Positions 2,858 to 12,457 of a stretch of 64,000 nucleotides of DNA are shown one piece after another. The stretch is from NCBI RefSeq assembly GCF_044324875.1, contig NZ_CP172185.1; one strand, written 5' to 3'. Position 1 is the first letter of the stretch; each line of letters opens with the position of its first letter. Made by a program: the position numbers and the translations under genes. The stretch is from Escherichia coli. Lineage in GTDB: Bacteria > Pseudomonadota > Gammaproteobacteria > Enterobacterales > Enterobacteriaceae. The notes beneath the pieces were generated by a model. That model saw nothing but the letters and a program-made list of their open reading frames with translations. It had not been told where the DNA came from and made no database searches.

Positions 2858-3601
2858 GTGAAAAAGTTACTGGCACTCACTGCGGTAGCTGCGCTTACCG
2901 GTACGTTTTCAACGCTGACGCTGGCAGATGCGGATAAAACCGGTTTCTATATCACGGGTAAGGCTGGTGCATCTGTTATCACTCAGGATAATCAGCGCTT
3001 TAGTCAGGACTTTGGGGATGATGTTTATAAGTATAAAGGCGGTGACAAGAGCGATACGGTTTTTGGTGCTGGCCTTGCGGTGGGATACGACTTTTATCAG
3101 CACTACAATGTCCCTGTACGCACGGAAGTTGAATTCTATGGTCGCGGCTCTGCGAATTCCCGCTATCCACTGGATACATGGGAGTCCCCATTTGGAGATA
3201 GTGGCCGGGAAGACACACAAAACAGGCTCAGCGTGAATACCCTGATGGTGAACACGTATTATGATTTCCGAAACAGCAGTGCTTTCACTCCGTGGGTATC
3301 AGCCGGACTGGGCTATGCGCGGGTACATCATAAGGCAACATACACCGATACCTACTGGAATAAATCAGGCGAAGTAAGTACTTCTGCATTACATTACTCG
3401 GGATATGATAACAATTTCGCATGGAGCCTTGGTGTTGGCGTGAAATATGATGTCACTCCGGATTTCAGTCTTGACCTTGCTTATCGCTATCTTGATGCAG
3501 GTGATTCAACCCTGACGTATAAAGACGGGCAGGATACATATAAATCCTCTGTTGATGTCAGAAGTAACGAATTTACGTTAGGCGCTACATACAGCTTCTG
3601 A
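2858..3601 (+). CDS. tia: Tia/Hek/PagN-type 8-stranded outer-membrane beta-barrel adhesin/invasin
   Basis: GTG start after AGGAGAGG. Signal peptide ...LTLADA. Alternating aromatic beta-strand pattern and C-terminal ...LGATYSF. Lies next to leoCBA, as in the ETEC tia island (from memory). Confidence 0.6.
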   Translation: MKKLLALTAVAALTGTFSTLTLADADKTGFYITGKAGASVITQDNQRFSQDFGDDVYKYKGGDKSDTVFGAGLAVGYDFYQHYNVPVRTEVEFYGRGSANSRYPLDTWESPFGDSGREDTQNRLSVNTLMVNTYYDFRNSSAFTPWVSAGLGYARVHHKATYTDTYWNKSGEVSTSALHYSGYDNNFAWSLGVGVKYDVTPDFSLDLAYRYLDAGDSTLTYKDGQDTYKSSVDVRSNEFTLGATYSF

Positions 3602-3612
3602 ATGTAATATCT

Positions 3613-3660
3613 GACTACACGTTGTTAAATTCAAAATCGCAGCGTGTAGTCTGATTTGAT
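3613..3660 (+). terminator. Stem-loop downstream of tia
   Basis: GACTACACG (3613-3621) pairs with CGTGTAGTC (3643-3651), followed by tgatttgat. The loop is long (21 nt), so confidence is moderate. Confidence 0.4.
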
Positions 3661-3687
3661 AGTTTAATACAACAGACAGGTACCTTC

Positions 3688-3882
3688 ATGGCACTTCCTC
3701 AGCCCCCGGTTACGTTCATTTGTACCAGATGTAAGTGGCGTAAAACCATTGTCCATATGGGATGTACTACTGGATTTTCACATTGTCCTCAATGTGGCAG
3801 TAATTCGGTAAAACGGGAAAATGCTGGTGTTGTTACTTCATTATTTTCCTCCCTTTCATCCGTTTTCATGAAAAAATCCTGA
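3688..3882 (+). CDS. Small zinc-ribbon protein (CxxC...CxxC), function unknown
   Basis: 64 aa with CTRC...CPQC. Same strand as leoC and about 100 bp upstream of it. Confidence 0.45.
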   Translation: MALPQPPVTFICTRCKWRKTIVHMGCTTGFSHCPQCGSNSVKRENAGVVTSLFSSLSSVFMKKS

Positions 3883-3983
3883 CTGCTGTTATTTTTATAT
3901 TGCTGGTACTTTATTAAAATCCGCTAAGGTTTTGTATCAGAAATAATTCTCAGACAGTAATCGTCATTCCATTCCGGGGATTT

Positions 3984-4652
3984 ATGAATACGAAAGAACA
4001 ATTCAACCAGCTTTATGATGATATCAGTAATCAGATACGCCAGACTGTGAATGATATTTCGCAACTGAGTGTTGAGAATGAAAAAGGACAGATACATCTC
4101 AATAAAATACGGGAACAACTACAGGCATTACATGATAACTTCAATCATAAGCTGGATTACCTGAAGGAGCATGCCGAATGGGACAGGTTTACTGTCGCTT
4201 TTTTTGGCGAAACGAATGCTGGTAAAAGTACCATAATTGAGTCGTTGAGAATATTATTTGATGAAACAACCCGTCGTGAATTCCTGAATAATAATCAAAA
4301 AGATTTACAAAAGTCAGAACAGGAGTTAAGTAAAAACCTGGAACAGTTAAGCCATGATTTGGAATGCGTTTATGGTGATATTGTCGATAAATTCCGTGAC
4401 ATTAGTTTGTCTGTCATGCAGTTACGACAAATTGTTGCTGATGAGAGCGCATTACGTATAAAAATGGAAGAAGATGAAAAGAATGCCCGTCTCCTTACAG
4501 AACAGAATGAAAGTCAGGCCCGGCTGAATATTTTACAGCAACAGACGAATACCAAAGCACGTTTCAGATTATTTGTGACGGCAATTATCAGCATGATTGT
4601 GGGAGGATGTGGATTTCTGTTGCTGAATCAAGTATTCGGGAGCTTACAATGA
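3984..4652 (+). CDS. leoC: LeoC-like dynamin fragment: G1 P-loop, coiled coil and a C-terminal TM helix
   Basis: FFGETNAGKSTIIESL (G1), a long coiled coil, then FRLFVTAIISMIVGGCGFLLL. The stop overlaps the leoB start (ATGA at 4649-4652). Confidence 0.7.
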   Translation: MNTKEQFNQLYDDISNQIRQTVNDISQLSVENEKGQIHLNKIREQLQALHDNFNHKLDYLKEHAEWDRFTVAFFGETNAGKSTIIESLRILFDETTRREFLNNNQKDLQKSEQELSKNLEQLSHDLECVYGDIVDKFRDISLSVMQLRQIVADESALRIKMEEDEKNARLLTEQNESQARLNILQQQTNTKARFRLFVTAIISMIVGGCGFLLLNQVFGSLQ

Positions 4653-6373
4653 GTAATATTCCATGTTCTGCAGATAATAATCCGGAAAAATATCCGGAAA
4701 CTGTCTGTCAGGAATATAATTGCACAGGCGGCGCGGATGATATCAGGTTCTTTTTTAAAAAAAGTCTGGAGCGTACTGTTAGTTCCGTTATCCGGACCGA
4801 AACATTAAGAAATACTGCAAAACGTGTGGATGGCCTGATCATCGGAACCGGTGAGGCTGATTTTACCAAAGACAACACACACTATAATTTACGCATTGAC
4901 GATAAAGATTTTCAGTTGATTGATGTTCCGGGTATTGAAGGTAATGAAACCTGCTACACACATCTTGTTAAAAAAGCCATTGCGCAGGCTCATCTGGTGG
5001 TTTACGTCAACGGTACCAATAAAAAGCCTGAAACAAGCACCGCAAAGAAGATCAAATCTTATCTGGAATATGGCACTCAGGTTTATCCGTTGATCAATGT
5101 ACGCGGTTATTCTGATGACTATGAATTTGAGGAAGATCGTGTCGCTCTCGAACAACAGGGTAGGGGCGGTGAGGCTTTATGCCAGACTGTTGGGGTGCTC
5201 GCTTCCGTATTAGGGGCGGATGTGTTGCTGAATGGGAACTGTGTACAGGGATTACTGGCATTTTCAGCGTTGGCTTATGACGACAATACACACAGAACAA
5301 CCATTCATCCGTTACGTGATCGAAATCTGGCGGTATATCAACGTGGTTTTTTTAATGTATTTCCTTCCCGTCAGGAAATGCTGACATTCAGCCAGATTGA
5401 TGCCGTCGCTCAGACAATTAAAAATAAGGTCGCAACGTTCCGTGAGGATATTATCGAAAGTAATAAATATAAAGTTCGTGAGACTCTGGATCAATACTTA
5501 CAGGTACTTGAAGAGCAATTAAACAGCCATCACTGCTTTTTACAAAAGACAATACCGGAATTTGAAAAATGCCGGACTGCGTTCAAAAATGCGACTGGTG
5601 AATTTGAACGCCGTATTGCGAACAGTCGTCGCAATCGCTGGAATAGCCTTTTTAATGACCTAGGGAATGCCTGTGATGGTATTGTCGAACATAATTTTGG
5701 TGACAGCAGTGCTATTTCCACACTGATACGTAATGAGTATGAAAAGCGCCGTAAAATGATGGAACAAATGATGCAGGAGGATACTGAAGAGAGTGTAAAG
5801 GTATTACAAGAGCAAACTCTTCAGGCGGTAAATCGTTTGCTGGAAGATATTCACAATGTGGAACTTCAACACCCCCTCAGTTTTGCTAACAGCCGCAGCA
5901 TCGAGTTTAGTGGAGAGATGGTACCTGGTTACGAGCTGGGGATGGCTGATTTCAGTTCAATGGTTTTAAAAATTGGCAGCTATGCAATGTCAGGCAGTGC
6001 AATTGGCAGCATCTTTCCCGTTATTGGTACGCTTGTTGGCTCTGCGGTTGGTGCGTTGCTTGGCATAATAATGACTATTGCGGGTATTTTTACCAGTAAA
6101 GCGTCAAAAATCCGCAAAGCACAAGGAAAAATACGCAACAAGCTGGAGGAAGTGCGGGATAAATCTCTCTGCAGCATACCTGATGAAACCCGCCTCCTGG
6201 TTGCAGCTATTGAAAAAGAACTTGAGTGTGGCCTGCTGCAAAAACTCAACGATATGCAGGTGGATCTGCAACAGCCTGTTGCCATATTCGAAACTCAAAT
6301 CAGTCGAATCACAACATTAAAGAAACAATTGGAGAAAATGCCTTATGGAACAATTCAAACAGTTCAGTATTGA
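4649..6373 (+). CDS. leoB: LeoB-like bacterial dynamin-like protein lacking its own P-loop
   Basis: The internal ATG at 4649 is coupled to the leoC stop. DVPGIEG (G3) is present but no GxxxxGK[ST]. A hydrophobic paddle (GSAIGSIFPVIGTLVGSAVGALLGIIMTIAGIF) lies near the C-terminus. Confidence 0.7.
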   Translation: MSNIPCSADNNPEKYPETVCQEYNCTGGADDIRFFFKKSLERTVSSVIRTETLRNTAKRVDGLIIGTGEADFTKDNTHYNLRIDDKDFQLIDVPGIEGNETCYTHLVKKAIAQAHLVVYVNGTNKKPETSTAKKIKSYLEYGTQVYPLINVRGYSDDYEFEEDRVALEQQGRGGEALCQTVGVLASVLGADVLLNGNCVQGLLAFSALAYDDNTHRTTIHPLRDRNLAVYQRGFFNVFPSRQEMLTFSQIDAVAQTIKNKVATFREDIIESNKYKVRETLDQYLQVLEEQLNSHHCFLQKTIPEFEKCRTAFKNATGEFERRIANSRRNRWNSLFNDLGNACDGIVEHNFGDSSAISTLIRNEYEKRRKMMEQMMQEDTEESVKVLQEQTLQAVNRLLEDIHNVELQHPLSFANSRSIEFSGEMVPGYELGMADFSSMVLKIGSYAMSGSAIGSIFPVIGTLVGSAVGALLGIIMTIAGIFTSKASKIRKAQGKIRNKLEEVRDKSLCSIPDETRLLVAAIEKELECGLLQKLNDMQVDLQQPVAIFETQISRITTLKKQLEKMPYGTIQTVQY

Positions 6374-8078
6374 AAAACTGGCTGCGATTAATTCGCTATC
6401 ACAGTTGCGCGGAATGTTAGAAATGTTGGGAGATTTGGGGATAGACATCAGTGACGATTTACAAAAAATTACTTATGCAATTAATTCCATCGAATCTGAT
6501 GTTCTGCGTATTGCTTTGTTGGGGGCGTTTTCTGATGGCAAAACCAGCGTTATCGCTGCATGGATGGGTAAGATAATGGATGATATGAATATTTCCATGG
6601 ATGAGTCCTCTGATCGGTTGAGTATTTACAAACCGGAAGGTCTGCCAGACCAGTGTGAAATTGTTGATACACCCGGGCTGTTTGGTGATAAAGAGCGTGA
6701 GGTGGACGGGAAACAGGTGATGTATGAAGACCTGACCAAACGCTATATATCTGAAGCTCATCTGATTTTATACGTGGTTGATGCCACTAACCCGCTAAAG
6801 GAGAGCCACAACGACATCGTAAAATGGGTATTGCGCGATTTGAATAAACTCTCTTCAACCATTTTTGTTATCAATAAAATGGATGAAGTGACTGATCTGA
6901 CAGAGCAGGCGCTGTTTGACGAGCAGGCAGCAATTAAAAAGGCGAATCTTAAAGGTAAATTGCAGCGTGCAGCTGCTCTTACCGCTCAGGAGTGTGATCA
7001 GCTAAATATCGTCTGCATTGCTTCAAACCCAAACGGTCGTGGCTTAACGTACTGGTTTGATAAACCAGAACATTATGAAAGTCGTTCGCGCATTAACGAT
7101 CTTAAAAATGCTGCCACCGACATACTGAAAACTAATGTGCCAGAGGTATTGTTAGCGAAAACAGGTATGGACGTGGTGAAAGATATTGTCATTCAGCGTG
7201 CCACCCAGGCAAGCAGACAGTTCGATGAACTGAATCTGTTTGTTGAGAAGAATGACGAGGACATGTGTCGTTTTCAGAACGACATTAAGCAAAGTCGCAT
7301 TGAGGTTAAACGGCTGGCCGGAGAGTTATTTGAAGAGCTGAACCTGATGGAAAAAAAGCTGATGAGTCAACTGCGTTCACTCGATCTGGACGATATCCGC
7401 CCGTTTATGGACGATGAGCTGGGATATACAGAAGATGGGGTTGGCTTTAAGCTTCATCTGCGCATTGAGCAGTCAGTTCATCGTTTTTTCGAACAGTCGA
7501 AAGCGGTCTCGCAACGCTTATCTGATGATATCACTTGTCAGTTGAGCTCCAGCGAGAGCTTTCTAAGTGGCTTAGGCGAAGGCGCATTTCGTTCTTTAGG
7601 CGGGACCTTTAAGGGAGTGTCGAAAATTAGTCCGGCGACGCTCAAAACGACTATTTTGACCGCACGCGATACGATTGGCAAACTAACGGGATATACCTAT
7701 AAATTTAAACCCTGGGAGGCCACGAAACTGGCCGGAAGCATTTCCAAATGGGCTGGTCCTGTGGGTGCAGTGTTTACGATTGGTTCTGATCTATGGGATG
7801 CCTATAAAGCACACGAGCGGGAGCAGGAGCTGAAAAAAGTAAAAGAATCGCTGGCGAAAATCATTAAAGAGCAGTTTGAATATATCTATGACGTACTGAG
7901 TTCTGATGAGAAAATATTCGCCTTTTTTGCACCGCAGATCCAAAAAATGGAGCAGGTTGTTACTGAGCTGGCAGAGAAAAGCCAGGCTATTCGCGACAAC
8001 CGGCAGAAACTGAGCATTATTCAGACGCAGCTTGCACAACTAATGGTTCCAGCCACAGAAAACCATACTGTCAGATAG
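6345..8078 (+). CDS. leoA: LeoA-like bacterial dynamin-like GTPase
   Basis: 577 aa. G1 GAFSDGKTS, G3 DTPGLFG, G4 INKMD. The length matches the LeoA I remember from ETEC H10407. Confidence 0.8.
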   Translation: MEQFKQFSIEKLAAINSLSQLRGMLEMLGDLGIDISDDLQKITYAINSIESDVLRIALLGAFSDGKTSVIAAWMGKIMDDMNISMDESSDRLSIYKPEGLPDQCEIVDTPGLFGDKEREVDGKQVMYEDLTKRYISEAHLILYVVDATNPLKESHNDIVKWVLRDLNKLSSTIFVINKMDEVTDLTEQALFDEQAAIKKANLKGKLQRAAALTAQECDQLNIVCIASNPNGRGLTYWFDKPEHYESRSRINDLKNAATDILKTNVPEVLLAKTGMDVVKDIVIQRATQASRQFDELNLFVEKNDEDMCRFQNDIKQSRIEVKRLAGELFEELNLMEKKLMSQLRSLDLDDIRPFMDDELGYTEDGVGFKLHLRIEQSVHRFFEQSKAVSQRLSDDITCQLSSSESFLSGLGEGAFRSLGGTFKGVSKISPATLKTTILTARDTIGKLTGYTYKFKPWEATKLAGSISKWAGPVGAVFTIGSDLWDAYKAHEREQELKKVKESLAKIIKEQFEYIYDVLSSDEKIFAFFAPQIQKMEQVVTELAEKSQAIRDNRQKLSIIQTQLAQLMVPATENHTVR

Positions 8079-8190
8079 ATGCATAATGCAGTTCCGTACA
8101 TCCGAATTTGAATAACGAATACTCTTTCAGAACTATCTGGATTGAAAGGATGCCTTCTGCTAATCATCGGAAATATGGCTTACTTAAGAC

Positions 8191-8400
8191 ATGAGGGATA
8201 AATCAGTGAGATTATTGTTAAAGGGACTGACTGGAATGGTTATGGCCTGGTTGGTGATCTATTTTGGTATGAAATTATTTTTTCTCACAGATCAGATTCA
8301 TCCGGCATTAAGAACTCTTGTCATGCTGGGGATGTTATTTATGTTGATAATGATTCCCTGTGTAATATGTGGTTCTTTTTTACGAAAGAGGCAGAAATGA
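8191..8400 (+). CDS. Small 2-TM membrane protein, unknown function
   Basis: 69 aa with two hydrophobic helices. AT-rich context. Confidence 0.4.
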   Translation: MRDKSVRLLLKGLTGMVMAWLVIYFGMKLFFLTDQIHPALRTLVMLGMLFMLIMIPCVICGSFLRKRQK

Positions 8401-9105: not shown

Positions 9106-9870
9106 TCAATCCAGTGTGATTTCTGCAGCCAGTTCTTCTGAGTCTGCATTTGCTATTTTGCTACGTAAGACTGCAACATAAATTACGGCAGGTATTGTAA
9201 CCCTGTAGGCTGTACCACCAACATCCACAAGAGTCCAGATTGCGGTAATCGCCCATCCTACAGGACCAGTTAATACAGCCATTGTTCTGGTCAAAATAGT
9301 ATTACCGGCAAAACTTAATCCTCTTCCGATTAAAGCTTTTAAAATAGCATTAGCCATAATTAATGTAAGCTGATACGATTTGAATCCACCTGCTTTAAAT
9401 ATGAACTGGAATGTTGAAACAAGTGCTTTCGGTGTAAGCCCATCGAGTTTTTTTACACCAATCTCTCGCGCAAATTCTTTCAGTTCATCATCACTCATTT
9501 TTTCAAATGCATCATTGAGTATTTTCAACATGAGGCATTGTTCTATATTTTCAATTGTGCTATTTTTGTTATAGTTAACTTTTAGTTTATCACAAACATC
9601 GGTAAGCACCTCTCTGTATTTAACACCTCGTCCTCCTCTGAGAAGTGTCGCAAAAGTATTACCGCCAAAGCATTGAATTTCAGCTGCAATTTCTCGCCAG
9701 TACTTACTGTGCTGAGGATTATATCTTTTGTAATATTCATTTCCAGAAAGTTCTTCAGTAAAGCGTTTCTTTCCGTCCTTATCATATATTAAGCAATCAA
9801 CCAAATCATTCAGTTCTGCATCAGAACATTTTGATAAAAACTCAAGGTCTTCATCATAACGATATGCCAT
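9106..9870 (-). CDS. YaaW-like protein (DUF3944 N-terminus plus UPF0174-type membrane-associated C-terminus)
   Basis: MAYRYDEDLEFLSKCSDAELNDLVD... N-terminus and ...GPVGWAITAIWTLVDVGGTAYRVTIPAV C-terminus resemble E. coli YaaW (memory). Confidence 0.6.
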   Translation of the reverse strand: MAYRYDEDLEFLSKCSDAELNDLVDCLIYDKDGKKRFTEELSGNEYYKRYNPQHSKYWREIAAEIQCFGGNTFATLLRGGRGVKYREVLTDVCDKLKVNYNKNSTIENIEQCLMLKILNDAFEKMSDDELKEFAREIGVKKLDGLTPKALVSTFQFIFKAGGFKSYQLTLIMANAILKALIGRGLSFAGNTILTRTMAVLTGPVGWAITAIWTLVDVGGTAYRVTIPAVIYVAVLRSKIANADSEELAAEITLD

Positions 9871-11051
9871 AAAATTTCCTATTTAAAGGTCAGGTGTTAA
9901 TGCTGACATGCGATTTTGAGACGTATAAATAGTCCTTGTCTATTATATTCTTATCAATTTTATTTTCAATGTTTTTATCTTCTTTTTATACACTCTTAAA
10001 AAGAACCGATTTTATTACCTGAGCATGTAATGTAAAAGTATATGTGTGATGATTAAAGTTTTTATCCTTATTTTTCCTGTAAGGACGAGCTTTCCGTGGT
10101 TGCTGTTCTCGTATGTATGCGGGGTATTACTTTCACTAATGGTTAAAATTCTTTCCTTCCGGTTAAAGCATTCATGTGTTTGTATTTTTCTTTGCTATTT
10201 GTTTTTTAGTACAGAATTTAATTAGTGTGGTTGTGATTTTTGTTGATATCACCACGCGCATTTTATATGAAATAGCCACATAACTTTCAACAAAATATAA
10301 AAATAAAATTATGCTATAGTAAACAACAGATTTTTATGTTTATGAAAGATGACCACTTTTTTAATTTGACTGAATTTTTTAAGATGCTTTTGAGTTGTGA
10401 AATATATTTTTCTTTATTGCTTTTTGGAATGTTGACGGGGCGTAGTTATGATTAATATAACAGAAGTTTCAGGAACGCTTTTTTCTTTTAAATGCCTGCG
10501 CATGACTTGTTCAATAATGTGTTTTCATCATATTTTTTTGGCATCAATACAATAATTAAAGATATAACGTTAAAATATTATTTATTGGCTTTTCCTGATG
10601 GAGTAAAAACAAATGTAACAACTAACTGCATGATAAATAAGTAGAATGGTCAGTATCATGTATATTATTTGGGTATAAGTGGTATTTGTAAAGAATCAGT
10701 TGTGTTACTCCGGAATATATCTCTTTGAGAGAGCAGAAGTGAAACAGATATTCTCTTGAAAGTATTGCATTATCGTTACCGTTTTTATATCAGAGGCTGA
10801 AAATACGTATTTTTATAAACAGGGTGGAGGCATTTTTGTGTTATGTATGGATTTTCAAACCGGGTGAATCATCCAGACAGGTAATAATATAATAAGAAAT
10901 GTTGCTGCCAGGCTAAAACAGGAACGTGTACTTCTGTGAAAATGTTGATGCGAAGCTACCATTATTTGGGGTAGGGTATCTTCGCTCATCAGATGATATT
11001 GAATATGGTCGCCTGAAATCAGAAATTAAAAAATACAAATGGTAGTTAACT

Positions 11052-11078
11052 CCCCACCAACCGCTGTGGTTGGTGGGG
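11052..11078 (-). terminator. 11-bp GC-rich stem-loop 10 nt downstream of the integrase stop
   Basis: CCCCACCAACC-gctgt-GGTTGGTGGGG. There is no immediate U-tract on the minus strand, so the terminator call is tentative. Confidence 0.35.
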
Positions 11079-11087
11079 GGGGATGGC

Positions 11088-12281
11088 TTATTTCGTTTGT
11101 ACGTTTTTCTCCATAAGTGAATCAATGTAATCAGCGTACCACTGCATCATTTCACGACGTCCATCGAGATACAGGGCATGATTATAGGTACCCCTGATGG
11201 AGTTTTTATCCACATGCGCTAACTGCATTTCAATCCAGGCAGAATTAAAGCCCTGTTCGTGCAGAATTGTGCTCATTGTGTGACGAAAACCATGGCCGGT
11301 TGCTCTGCCATCGTAACCGATGCGTTTTAGTACCATATTGATGCTGGCTTCACTCATCGGTTTGTTAACATCGCAACGTCCGGGGAATATAAGGCGATAC
11401 TGCCCGGTAAAACGATGCAATTCCTGCAGCAGTGAAATGGCCTGGCGTGACAGAGGAACAATATGATGCCTGCGCATTTTCATTCGCTCTTCAGGGATAT
11501 GCCAGAGTGCGTTGTCAGAATCAATTTCTGACCATTCGGCCAGCCGCAATTCAATCGTTCTGAGTCCGGTCAGCATCAGCAGGCTCGTCGCCATACGGGT
11601 GACAGGACTGCCATGATAGTCAGCGAGCTTCCGGAGAAAAACAGGAAGTTCATCCGCTCTCAGATGGGGAAAATGTGCGGTTTTTGGTGCCGCCAGCGTA
11701 CTGGTCAGTTCTGATGCAGGATTGACAGTGGCACGTCCTGTGGCAATGGCATAACGGAAAATCTGATTGCAGTATTGACGGACCTTGCGTAATTTTTCCA
11801 GAGAGCCACGTTTTTCAATACGACGCAAAATCTCCAGCATTTCCAGCGGGAGGATATCAGTCACGCTCCGGTTGCTCAGATACGGGAAAACGTCTTTATC
11901 CAGCGCTTCCAGTACGCTTCTGGCGTAACTGTCAGACCATGATAAAGATTTATGATGATGCCATTCCATTGCGAGAGCATGAAAGGTGTTGGTGACAGAG
12001 ATTTTCTGAGAGAGTTTTTCCCTTCGCTTCTTTTCACCGGGATCTCCACCCTCGGATATAATTTTTCGTGCATCGTCGCGTCTGGTTCTGGCTTCAGCAA
12101 GGGAGACGTCAGGATAGACGCCGAGGGACAGTTTTTTCTCCTTTCCTGCTGTTCTGTACTTAAGGCGCCAGTAGCGTGCTCCCGTGGTTTTTACCAGCAG
12201 ATATAAACCACGTTCATCAGAAAGTTTATAATCTTTGTCTTTAGGTCTTGCCGTTTCGACCTGTCTGGCTGTAAGTGCCAT
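11088..12281 (-). CDS. P4-type tyrosine integrase (DUF4102 N-terminus)
   Basis: MALTARQVETARPKDKDYKLSDERGLYLLVKTTGARYWRLKY..., HGFRHT (HxxR) and ...IRGTYNHA (catalytic Tyr). Adjacent to the tRNA-Phe fragment. Start chosen at ATG 12281 rather than the upstream Met at 12311. Confidence 0.9.
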   Translation of the reverse strand: MALTARQVETARPKDKDYKLSDERGLYLLVKTTGARYWRLKYRTAGKEKKLSLGVYPDVSLAEARTRRDDARKIISEGGDPGEKKRREKLSQKISVTNTFHALAMEWHHHKSLSWSDSYARSVLEALDKDVFPYLSNRSVTDILPLEMLEILRRIEKRGSLEKLRKVRQYCNQIFRYAIATGRATVNPASELTSTLAAPKTAHFPHLRADELPVFLRKLADYHGSPVTRMATSLLMLTGLRTIELRLAEWSEIDSDNALWHIPEERMKMRRHHIVPLSRQAISLLQELHRFTGQYRLIFPGRCDVNKPMSEASINMVLKRIGYDGRATGHGFRHTMSTILHEQGFNSAWIEMQLAHVDKNSIRGTYNHALYLDGRREMMQWYADYIDSLMEKNVQTK

Positions 12282-12457
12282 ATGGGGGCCCCTTAAACTG
12301 ACCGAACACAATGAGCCCCCAAATGTGCCCCCATTTAATGCTTGATTCAGGGGGTGTTCAATAGAATTCGGTGGAGTTCAAAATGTCCGGAACGATTATA
12401 AATCAGTGATTATACATGAATTTCGTGGAGTGCGGGGGATGTGTGTAGAAGTGAAGG

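Follow-up and report, generated by a model that had tools for sequence, protein, structure and literature searches.

A divergent leoC-leoB-leoA operon in Escherichia coli and the predicted division of one dynamin-like GTPase between two polypeptides

Results

The leoC-leoB-leoA operon

We analysed a 64,000-nucleotide stretch of Escherichia coli DNA from contig NZ_CP172185.1, here called the window, which carries an operon for dynamin-like GTPases, leoC-leoB-leoA, preceded by a small open reading frame (ORF) for a zinc-ribbon protein. All four genes lie on the plus strand, and an ORF listing confirmed them at the positions given in the initial annotation: the zinc-ribbon ORF at 3688-3882 (64 aa, with a CxxC...CxxC pattern), leoC at 3984-4652 (222 aa), leoB at 4649-6373 (574 aa, in a frame that is open from 4607) and leoA at 6345-8078 (577 aa). 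The ATG of leoB at 4649 overlaps the leoC stop by 4 nt as ATGA, and the leoA start overlaps the end of leoB by 29 nt. PADLOC, which holds separate LeoB, LeoC and LeoBC models, matched all three genes (LeoC 4.4e-71, LeoB 1.7e-218, LeoA 5.3e-280 (PDLC03840)), and its Eleos gene set of LeoA, LeoB and LeoC is complete, in keeping with the identity first proposed for the locus. The description of Eleos as an anti-phage system likewise agrees with the available text of 10.1101/2022.12.12.520048, in which the antiphage system consists of LeoA and LeoBC.

A scan for [AG]xxxxGK[ST] returned matches confined to LeoC (residue 75, GETNAGKS) and LeoA (residue 60). The G1 motif or P-loop of LeoC, GETNAGKST, occupies residues 75-83 (4206-4232, +), and a G3 motif, DVPG, was found by motif scan in LeoB at residues 92-95 (4922-4933, +). 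The gene behind leoC had been described as starting at an ATGA overlap and carrying DVPG but no P-loop; the motif scan agrees, and a P-loop sought in LeoB by alignment with fused LeoBC proteins was not seen. The claim that the 222-aa product holds the only P-loop is right for the LeoC/LeoB pair and not for the operon, since LeoA has its own. LeoA is the complete dynamin-like protein that it was taken to be: G1 lies at residue 60, DTPG at 108 and NKMD at 177, and the protein matches NCBIfam NF041922 (LeoA/HP0731 family dynamin-like GTPase) at 2e-184, above the 325-bit cut-off, and Pfam DLP_helical at 3.2e-95.

The idea that one GTPase is made from two chains, with a membrane anchor at the break, is supported by our analysis and was published by Michie et al. 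2014 (PMC4159319). In that work on the locus of enterotoxigenic E. coli (ETEC), LeoC was described as bearing the P-loop within the N-terminal portion of a truncated GTPase domain and closing with a 22-residue membrane anchor, and LeoB as the supplier of DxxG and the remainder, the two together aligning along the whole of LeoA. The authors re-sequenced the ETEC locus, found the split kept in other bacteria, determined a crystal structure of LeoA and proposed that LeoA works with a LeoBC chimera; LeoA alone was inactive, and LeoB and LeoC protein were not obtained. Judged from its sequence, the region studied here is a divergent copy of this published operon of the Eleos type, and its core feature was already known. 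What goes beyond the 2014 paper is the placement of G2 in LeoB, the series of inserts in fused relatives and the link between splitting and tail anchor, the degenerate G4 of LeoB and LeoBC, and a zinc-ribbon family with links to WYL and dynamin-like genes.

For comparison we used the top 80 leo loci, one genome per species, a sample biased toward LeoC-like sequences, together with an ETEC-type locus (L002). It contains 63 split loci and 13 loci with a fused LeoBC. The three-gene split arrangement thus recurs in 63 loci from many phyla, far beyond chance, and the leoC and leoB genes, whose co-occurrence had been singled out for checking, stand together in these 63. In most split loci the leoC stop and the leoB start overlap or lie no more than 17 nt apart.

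Position of the split and the LeoC tail anchor

Aligned to the fused LeoBC profile of PADLOC, LeoC residues 6-89 take up positions 13-98 and LeoB residues 52-562 take up positions 92-581, so that the two proteins cover the profile end to end. The P-loop motif is invariant in 23 LeoC homologues. Homology of the window LeoC to fused forms ends at 'IIESLRILFDE', and that of LeoB picks up at 'VDGLIIGTGEADFTKDNTHYNLRIDDKDFQLIDVPGIEGNE'. A compact fused LeoBC from Bacillus, which reads 'AFFGETNAGKSTIIEALTNGDGTFIGDGRKDFTKK...LLDLPGIEGNE' from G1 to G3, contains a stretch, 'GETNAGKSTIIEALTNGDGTFIGDGRKDFTKK...DLPG', that exactly bridges the LeoC end 'IIESLRILFDE' and the LeoB segment 'VDGLIIGTGEADFT...DVPG'. 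These alignments place the gene break between helix alpha-1 and switch 1.

The fused proteins differ widely at this very point. Their G1-to-G3 spacing is 44 aa in Bacillus, 57 in Dialister, 99 in Helicobacteraceae, 122 in Capnocytophaga, 155 in an Oxalobacteraceae metagenome-assembled genome (MAG), 174 in Flavobacteriia and 258 in Acinetobacter/Moraxella, and from 0 to some 210 residues are inserted at the split site. Longer inserts look helical and contain a short aromatic, hydrophobic patch near their centre (for example FWVQWLNVFRSWFGLLPILFF, MSWWLKIIYIF or LLYGILLLFINLKYWLL), and no hydrophobic segment with a KD19 of at least 1.6 was seen in the insert of fused LeoBC. Every one of the 63 split LeoC proteins, by comparison, has a C-terminal hydrophobic segment with a KD19 of at least 1.78. 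In the window LeoC this segment spans residues 194-219 (4563-4640, +; KD19 2.43) with few residues beyond it, which corroborates the transmembrane helix noted in the initial annotation; the coiled coil noted next to it has its counterpart in one long modelled helix, described below, and helix pairing is no part of that result. The tail behind the anchor has a median length of 5 aa over 64 sequences, and Lys and Arg are more frequent before the anchor than after it in 64/64 LeoC proteins, the window's included (mean 3.6 vs 0.3), a positive-inside pattern.

Splitting and tail anchor therefore coincide perfectly in the leo sample. In a whole chain, a true single-pass anchor at this site would pull the remaining part of the domain through to the other side of the membrane, which would explain why the gene is cut right after the anchor. 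We infer that the gene split may be a topological device, one that allows a true transmembrane anchor to sit inside a cytoplasmic GTPase domain. The fused LeoBC of Capnocytophaga has a multi-helix hydrophobic N-terminus in place of an insert anchor (P0137; L079 4521-6998 is among the variant entries).

Nucleotide-binding motifs and paddle of LeoB

In dynamin, about 21 residues separate the P-loop Lys from the G2 Thr; the corresponding distance in the compact Bacillus form is 22 residues. The motif G.G...[FY]T is found at most 40 residues upstream of D.PG in 71/71 LeoB or LeoBC sequences, and in the window it reads GTGEADFT at LeoB residues 66-73 (4844-4867, +). Because the motif is universal in LeoB and LeoBC and has near-dynamin spacing, we assign switch 1, with Thr73, to LeoB, and the LeoC/LeoB composite has G1 at LeoC 75, G2 at LeoB Thr73 and G3 at LeoB 92. 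A location of switch 1 in LeoC, as stated in PMC4159319, is rejected, since the 'DETT' that follows alpha-1 is unconserved in fused forms and absent from the compact Bacillus protein.

The G4 position of the window LeoB (residues 163-167, 5135-5150) reads INVRG, with no Lys-x-Asp. Across LeoB and LeoBC sequences this position is INVRG, YNKPV, FNKSV, FNVHC or LNEKK and never NKxD, while in LeoA it is NKMD in 54/72 sequences and N[KR]xD in most others. Further along, LeoB has a Gly-rich hydrophobic segment of paddle type at residues 451-485 (5999-6103, +; KD19 2.21), whose consensus IG.YA..G..IG...P..GN..GA..G is conserved across LeoB homologues; Michie et al. 2014 predicted a membrane-binding domain in this region (PMC4159319). 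LeoB architecture also varies: one variant of about 650 aa, from Acinetobacter, has an N-terminal GYF_2/DUF4339 domain, and another of 832 aa has the source name 'TPR repeat protein' (variants among P0166, P0210, P0248 and others, L052 5522-7492, P0137, L079 4521-6998).

Structure model of the LeoC/LeoB composite

A sequence search of the PDB with LeoB and LeoC gave no match, and we modelled LeoC and LeoB with AlphaFold2 as a concatenation, that is, a single artificial fusion chain, on a 59-row alignment of the window chimera, three natural fusions and LeoC and LeoB homologues. The mean predicted local distance difference test (pLDDT) was 71.8 and the predicted template-modelling score (pTM) 0.57; a run without alignment gave a mean pLDDT of 37.7. 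The modelled LeoC consists of an N-terminal hairpin of helices (3-26 and 33-63), strand beta-1 (69-75), the P-loop, helix alpha-1 (78-91) and one long helix (95-205) leading to the tail anchor. The modelled LeoB begins with 28 disordered residues and a helix (29-60), continues through a low-confidence switch-1 loop into the strand/helix alternation of a G domain, with G3 and the degenerate G4, and ends in an all-helical long neck and trunk, interrupted at the paddle with its hydrophobic tip (451-485). Confidence is high around the predicted nucleotide site, with a pLDDT of 83-89 over beta-1, P-loop and alpha-1 of LeoC and of 74-92 over the G domain of LeoB. In a Foldseek search the model matched BDLP (2j69, 2j68), IniA, Cj-DLP1 (5owv_A) and Drp1, all with probability 1.00.

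The upstream zinc-ribbon gene

The ETEC-type locus has, between tia and leoC, an ORF of the same 64 codons as the zinc-ribbon ORF of the window, with 41% aa and 54% nt identity to it. Between these two alleles dN/dS is about 0.27, and the remaining frames are closed. An exhaustive HMMER search of 1.8 billion proteins gave 14 representative clusters, a dozen of them of 64-97 aa and two in much longer proteins; the absence of any match in a word-index search reflects the sensitivity limit of that method, since HMMER found these 14. The family alignment has invariant C12, C15, W17, C33 and C36, a typical MPxPPPxxTFxCxxCxWxKT...CPxCG pattern and a helix-like C-terminal tail, and the family HMM scores the window ORF at 2e-25, T20 and P34 also being present. 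Matches to Pfam, NCBIfam and PHROGs were sub-threshold only, and those to PADLOC were at chance level. The ETEC-type protein is labelled 'hypothetical protein' in some GenBank records. This conservation marks the ORF as a real, mostly unannotated gene. A sigma-70 promoter scan of 3400-4200 found none on the plus strand, with no excess over shuffles. Between the stop of the preceding outer-membrane protein (OMP) gene and the zinc-ribbon ORF lies a perfect 9-bp inverted repeat (GACTACACG ... CGTGTAGTC, 3612-3651), terminator-like though with no clean T-run.

With an iterated HMM, the zinc-ribbon gene was detected in 13/79 other leo loci. Seven of these 13 loci, like the window and the ETEC type, have it on the leoC strand no more than about 120 nt ahead of leoC; these nine loci come from Escherichia, Paraburkholderia, Achromobacter, Pseudomonas and Methyloglobulus. 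In four others a WYL gene stands between the zinc-ribbon gene and leoC, and in two the zinc-ribbon gene is downstream of leoA. WYL regulators flank or head 26/80 leo loci, and a WYL gene is present in 10/13 zinc-positive but only 16/66 zinc-negative ones. The suggestion that the zinc-ribbon gene is a fourth component of the system was thus sound in pointing to a real conserved gene, shared with the ETEC-type locus and 13/79 others, and fails as a general statement, the gene being absent from most leo loci.

A leo-independent sample came from a metagenome scan with a hand-built degenerate DNA pattern that covers only the 'MP...C..C.W.KT...CP.CG' subfamily and yielded at least 120 loci; all 120 listed encode a protein matching the family HMM. 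Among these 120 listed loci, WYL/WCX regulators occur in 60, and in 16/19 of those with flanks of at least 2.5 kb on both sides. The same 120 hold NERD-domain genes in 20, ADP-ribosylglycohydrolase genes in 17, a non-Leo dynamin-like pair (567 + 747 aa) in 16, PDC-M09A-like genes in 11 and Leo genes in 5. Two WYL HMMs built from these metagenome neighbours had no match among all ORFs of the window. Three further zinc-ribbon homologues sit on contigs of about 1-2 kb that carry no context information. The non-Leo dynamin-like pair is often found in the order ADP-ribosylglycohydrolase, zinc-ribbon, dynamin-like protein (DLP), DLP, often with a divergent WYL gene, and gives weak LeoA/LeoBC matches only (L116, L158, L161, L180, L185 and 11 more); it may be an undescribed candidate system.

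The closest homologue of the window protein (P0121, 48% identity) precedes an EcsC-family gene (PADLOC PDC-S29, 6e-86), and the integrase there is 90.7% identical in amino acids to that of the window. In E. coli sister islands (ECCNB12-2, L214 5001-5079; L083-L086), the window-type zinc-ribbon ORF is cut down to its first 79 nt, which stand after a Tia-like OMP gene, and this remnant is followed by a 117-aa gene, a second, complete zinc-ribbon ORF and the EcsC gene (L214 5549-6518). The comparison suggests an exchange of cargo cassettes, leoCBA against EcsC/PDC-S29, with a junction inside the zinc-ribbon ORF.

Genomic setting

An avian E. coli carries the operon, on a small islet bounded by an integrase. 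At the head of the islet is a gene for a Tia-like outer-membrane beta-barrel (2858-3601, +; Pfam OMP_b-brl, 1e-18), which has 80% nt identity to the tia region of L002, where tia is annotated at the same place, and the islet's boundary is a tyrosine integrase (11088-12311, -; RefSeq annotation). Window positions 3600-8100 are 100% identical to the chromosome of E. coli CM2, a chicken isolate. RefSeq names LeoA in CM2 ('toxin secretory dynamin-like GTPase'), lists LeoB and LeoC as 'hypothetical protein' and leaves the zinc-ribbon ORF without annotation. The window-type leo variant was found in only 1/5426 complete E. coli genomes; of the other 89 E. coli genomes with a match, the majority have the ETEC-type allele. 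A 1102-bp contig labelled Actinacidiphila cocklensis (L006) has a zinc-ribbon ORF and a leoC of the ETEC type, which equal those of L002 in ORF length and score, and is probably E. coli contamination of a Streptomycetaceae assembly. A Methyloglobulus MAG (L042, 4768-7099) has no leoB at its locus: a 522-aa LeoA-like gene comes immediately after the zinc-ribbon gene and leoC, through either a deletion or faulty assembly.

Upstream of the OMP gene, the islet has an extra, island-borne copy of dolP (1555-2142, +) and a copy of yebF (2189-2542, -), the latter a RefSeq pseudogene with an internal stop; a truncated sodC region and transposase remnants lie farther upstream in CM2. Downstream of leoA is a gene for a 254-aa DUF3944/Ubiq_cyt_C_chap protein (9106-9870, -) that PADLOC matches to JukA at 7e-69. 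We rejected a JukA-JukB system at this place, as only the JukA-like gene is there, with no JukB-sized ORF adjacent, and it looks orphan or incomplete. The 1.2 kb or so between this gene and the integrase (9870-11088) is 31% GC and has no ORF of more than 70 aa. From about 12500 to 64000 the window is taken up by an integrative conjugative element of the SPI-7/PFL type, whose cargo in the RefSeq annotation of CM2 comprises parA, dnaB-PI, parB, topoisomerase III, traD, traG, iha (adhesin/siderophore receptor) and ccdAB, as well as an EcoRI-like methyltransferase and an HNH endonuclease.

Discussion

We favour, with a probability of about 0.72, the reading that leoCBA encodes an Eleos-type dynamin-like pair, one member of which is made as two chains that dock into one membrane-held GTPase, with an antiphage role most likely and the zinc-ribbon protein as an accessory. 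LeoC would give the N-terminal neck helices, beta-1, the P-loop and alpha-1, then leave the GTPase fold as a long helix that ends as an inner-membrane tail anchor, its N-terminus being cytoplasmic. LeoB, whose translation is coupled to that of LeoC by the ATGA overlap, would supply switch 1 (Thr73), G3, a degenerate G4, the neck, the trunk and a second membrane-binding element, the paddle, and its docking with LeoC would create a single nucleotide-binding domain held at the membrane. LeoA, a complete, soluble DLP, would pair with LeoB/C through the GTPase domains, leading to assembly-stimulated hydrolysis and to membrane remodelling or sealing. In evolutionary terms, the family may have gained a second membrane contact from within the GTPase domain, the chain staying whole as long as that contact only dips into the membrane. 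Gene identity, the distribution of motifs, the place of the split and its link to the tail anchor are shown here; docking of the chains, orientation toward the cytoplasm, pairing with LeoA and biological role we infer, and mutual activation of LeoB/C and LeoA through G-domain dimerisation is proposed by analogy with Cj-DLP1/2 (PMC6104087). Acting on the inner membrane, the Leo proteins would most likely serve anti-phage defence, and phage protection could come about by stabilising or resealing the membrane or by delaying lysis, vesicle and toxin release being a side effect of remodelling.

Several points weigh against this reading. That the P-loop of LeoC docks into the domain of LeoB is deduced from confidence values and homology in an artificial fusion chain, and pLDDT falls below 50 over switch 1 (fusion residues 276-293) and over the anchor. 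The guanine specificity of the composite site is uncertain because LeoB is without the Asp of NKxD, and the site may lack the usual preference for guanine. Behind the topological rationale stands a correlation, in a sample in which LeoC-like sequences are over-represented. LeoA was reported to be periplasmic by Michie et al. 2014 (PMC4159319), which conflicts with a GTP-using machine on the cytoplasmic face. In the literature searched, finally, no phage-defence test of a split proteobacterial LeoCBA was found, the activity reported in the available text of the Eleos source being that of LeoA with LeoBC, and no description of the Eleos mechanism was found either.

The operon could instead be mainly a virulence module, in which LeoCBA promotes the release of outer-membrane vesicles and heat-labile toxin (LT) as in ETEC H10407, rather than immunity. 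Knockouts of leoA or leoB lowered vesicle-associated Tat-GFP and OmpA by about 50% and the ETEC locus adjoins the invasin gene tia (both PMC4159319), a Tia-like OMP gene stands directly upstream in the window, and the RefSeq name of LeoA refers to toxin secretion. Yet the split operon occurs in plant-associated, environmental and gut-commensal bacteria without LT toxin (Pectobacterium, Pseudomonas, Shewanella, Treponema, Clostridia MAGs), tia and the downstream genes are not conserved alongside leoCBA (PMC4159319), and LeoA with LeoBC is catalogued as an antiphage system. It is because of this broad distribution among non-pathogens, the WYL-type regulators at 26/80 leo loci and the candidate defence gene in the cargo slot of the sister islands that we favour defence and hold a primary virulence role to be unlikely, if still worth considering. 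Two further explanations concern the split itself. The ATGA overlap, a -1 overlap, resembles a frameshift, and RefSeq calls both products 'hypothetical protein', as might befit a fused leoBC decayed into a frameshift pseudogene; but in 63 independent split loci from several phyla LeoC is intact up to its tail anchor and leoB begins only a few nucleotides away, conservation of the LeoC coding sequence extends over its full length, anchor included, and the split held when the ETEC locus was re-sequenced (PMC4159319). Decay is accordingly scarcely credible, and on the same conservation across 63 loci we rejected an assembly or frameshift artefact. Nor does LeoC look like an independent P-loop ATPase of the OLD/AAA_15 type that would not complete the LeoB GTPase, a very improbable reading even though AAA_15 is its best Pfam match (3.7e-06) and some sources name its homologues 'OLD family protein' or 'ATP-binding protein': the AAA_15 score of 27.2 is below the curated cut-off of 32.1 and covers the P-loop and one helix only, the modelled LeoC has a single beta-strand with no Walker B and no further core strands, and fused homologues run straight from the LeoC alpha-1 into the LeoB switch 1.

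The zinc-ribbon protein raises a separate question, namely whether it is an obligatory fourth Leo subunit, such as a nucleotide-exchange or assembly factor that binds LeoC. Its place within about 120 nt upstream of leoC on the same strand in nine loci of five genera, the purifying selection between two diverged E. coli alleles and its position directly before a non-Leo dynamin-like pair in metagenome loci all speak for such a role. We nevertheless consider it improbable, given that the gene is absent from 66/79 other leo loci (including all those of Firmicutes, Spirochaetes and Bacteroidota and most of Enterobacterales), that in some loci it is downstream, convergent or parted from leoC by a WYL gene, that Leo genes are found in 5 and WYL genes in 60 of the 120 listed loci selected by the zinc ribbon, and that the island of the closest homologue has EcsC/PDC-S29 behind that homologue and an integrase 90.7% identical to the window's. 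This distribution indicates a gene that is neither Leo-specific nor required by Leo, tied to WYL regulators and enriched beside dynamin-like systems. It is most likely an operon-head or regulatory accessory common to other defence cargo, and probably no dynamin subunit. More tentatively, and as a possibility that we rate as rather less than even, the undescribed zinc-ribbon family and wHTH-WYL(-WCX) repressors might together control defence operons as a two-gene module placed at their head, with dynamin-like pairs (Leo and the 567 + 747 aa pair) as roughly one fifth of the cargo; the E. coli leo islets would have kept the zinc ribbon without the WYL gene, and its conserved 5' end would be the junction for cargo exchange.

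Since the headline feature was published in 2014 and is built into PADLOC, the value of this locus is that of a well-defined test case. The placement of switch 1 in LeoB makes LeoC K81 and LeoB T73 the residues of interest for the nucleotide site, and the coincidence of the split with a tail anchor, set beside the non-spanning insert of fused relatives, offers a testable reason for the split. Through the zinc-ribbon gene, leo operons are connected with WYL-type regulation and with other dynamin-like cargo; should the product of this gene act as a sensor or co-regulator, Leo systems would have a genuine fourth component, of a regulatory kind. The locus also exposes an annotation gap, in that LeoB and LeoC of the window allele are 'hypothetical protein' in RefSeq and the zinc-ribbon ORF is uncalled.

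Comparison with known systems

The nearest relative is the tia-leoC-leoB-leoA locus of ETEC H10407, which has the same gene order as the window, a Tia-like OMP gene upstream and an unannotated zinc-ribbon ORF between tia and leoC. The ETEC-type allele has about 90% nt identity to the window from 4777 on (4777-8389), across leoB and leoA, while divergence is much greater in the first ~130 nt of leoB and in leoC, which is only 60% identical in amino acids (about 72% nt). The ETEC-type LeoC is about 205 aa long against 222 aa, the long helix being 22 aa longer in the window, and leoC and leoB are 10 nt apart there instead of overlapping as ATGA. The downstream genes differ, the two integrases share only 61% identity, and the window has no tRNA gene, tRNA-Sec included, unlike the ETEC island at tRNA-Sec. 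Eleos, or 'Dynamins' (LeoA with a fused LeoBC, in DefenseFinder and PADLOC), is a homologous two-dynamin module in which the LeoBC GTPase is one chain; its compact Bacillus LeoBC, with 44 aa from G1 to G3, has no anchor in the G domain, unlike the split form.

On the regulatory side, wHTH-WYL-WCX proteins such as BrxR and CapW (PMC9122601, PMC11662680) are the likeness for the WYL/WCX genes at 26/80 leo loci and in 60 of the 120 zinc-ribbon loci listed, the window itself being without a WYL gene; PMC9122601 makes no mention of a zinc-ribbon partner of BrxR.

Among characterised dynamins, DLP1 and DLP2 of C. jejuni are an operon pair of which each is inactive alone and which gains GTPase activity after hetero-oligomerisation (PMC6104087). 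Cj-DLP2 and LeoA are of the same subtype, and the LeoC+LeoB model matches Cj-DLP1 (5owv_A); Cj-DLP1, however, is a single chain with an N-terminal assembly domain, with neither a split nor an anchor in the G domain. DynA of B. subtilis, a bacterial DLP, has been connected with phage defence, and the available text of PMC8844932 and PMC12998192 reports its membrane binding to be essential. It consists of two complete DLPs fused in one chain, the opposite of splitting one DLP, and has no transmembrane anchor. The long and short isoforms of Mgm1/OPA1, to which PMC4159319 drew the analogy, combine an anchored form with a soluble partner in mutual activation, but their anchor lies N-terminal to an intact GTPase domain, whereas the anchor of LeoC interrupts the domain.

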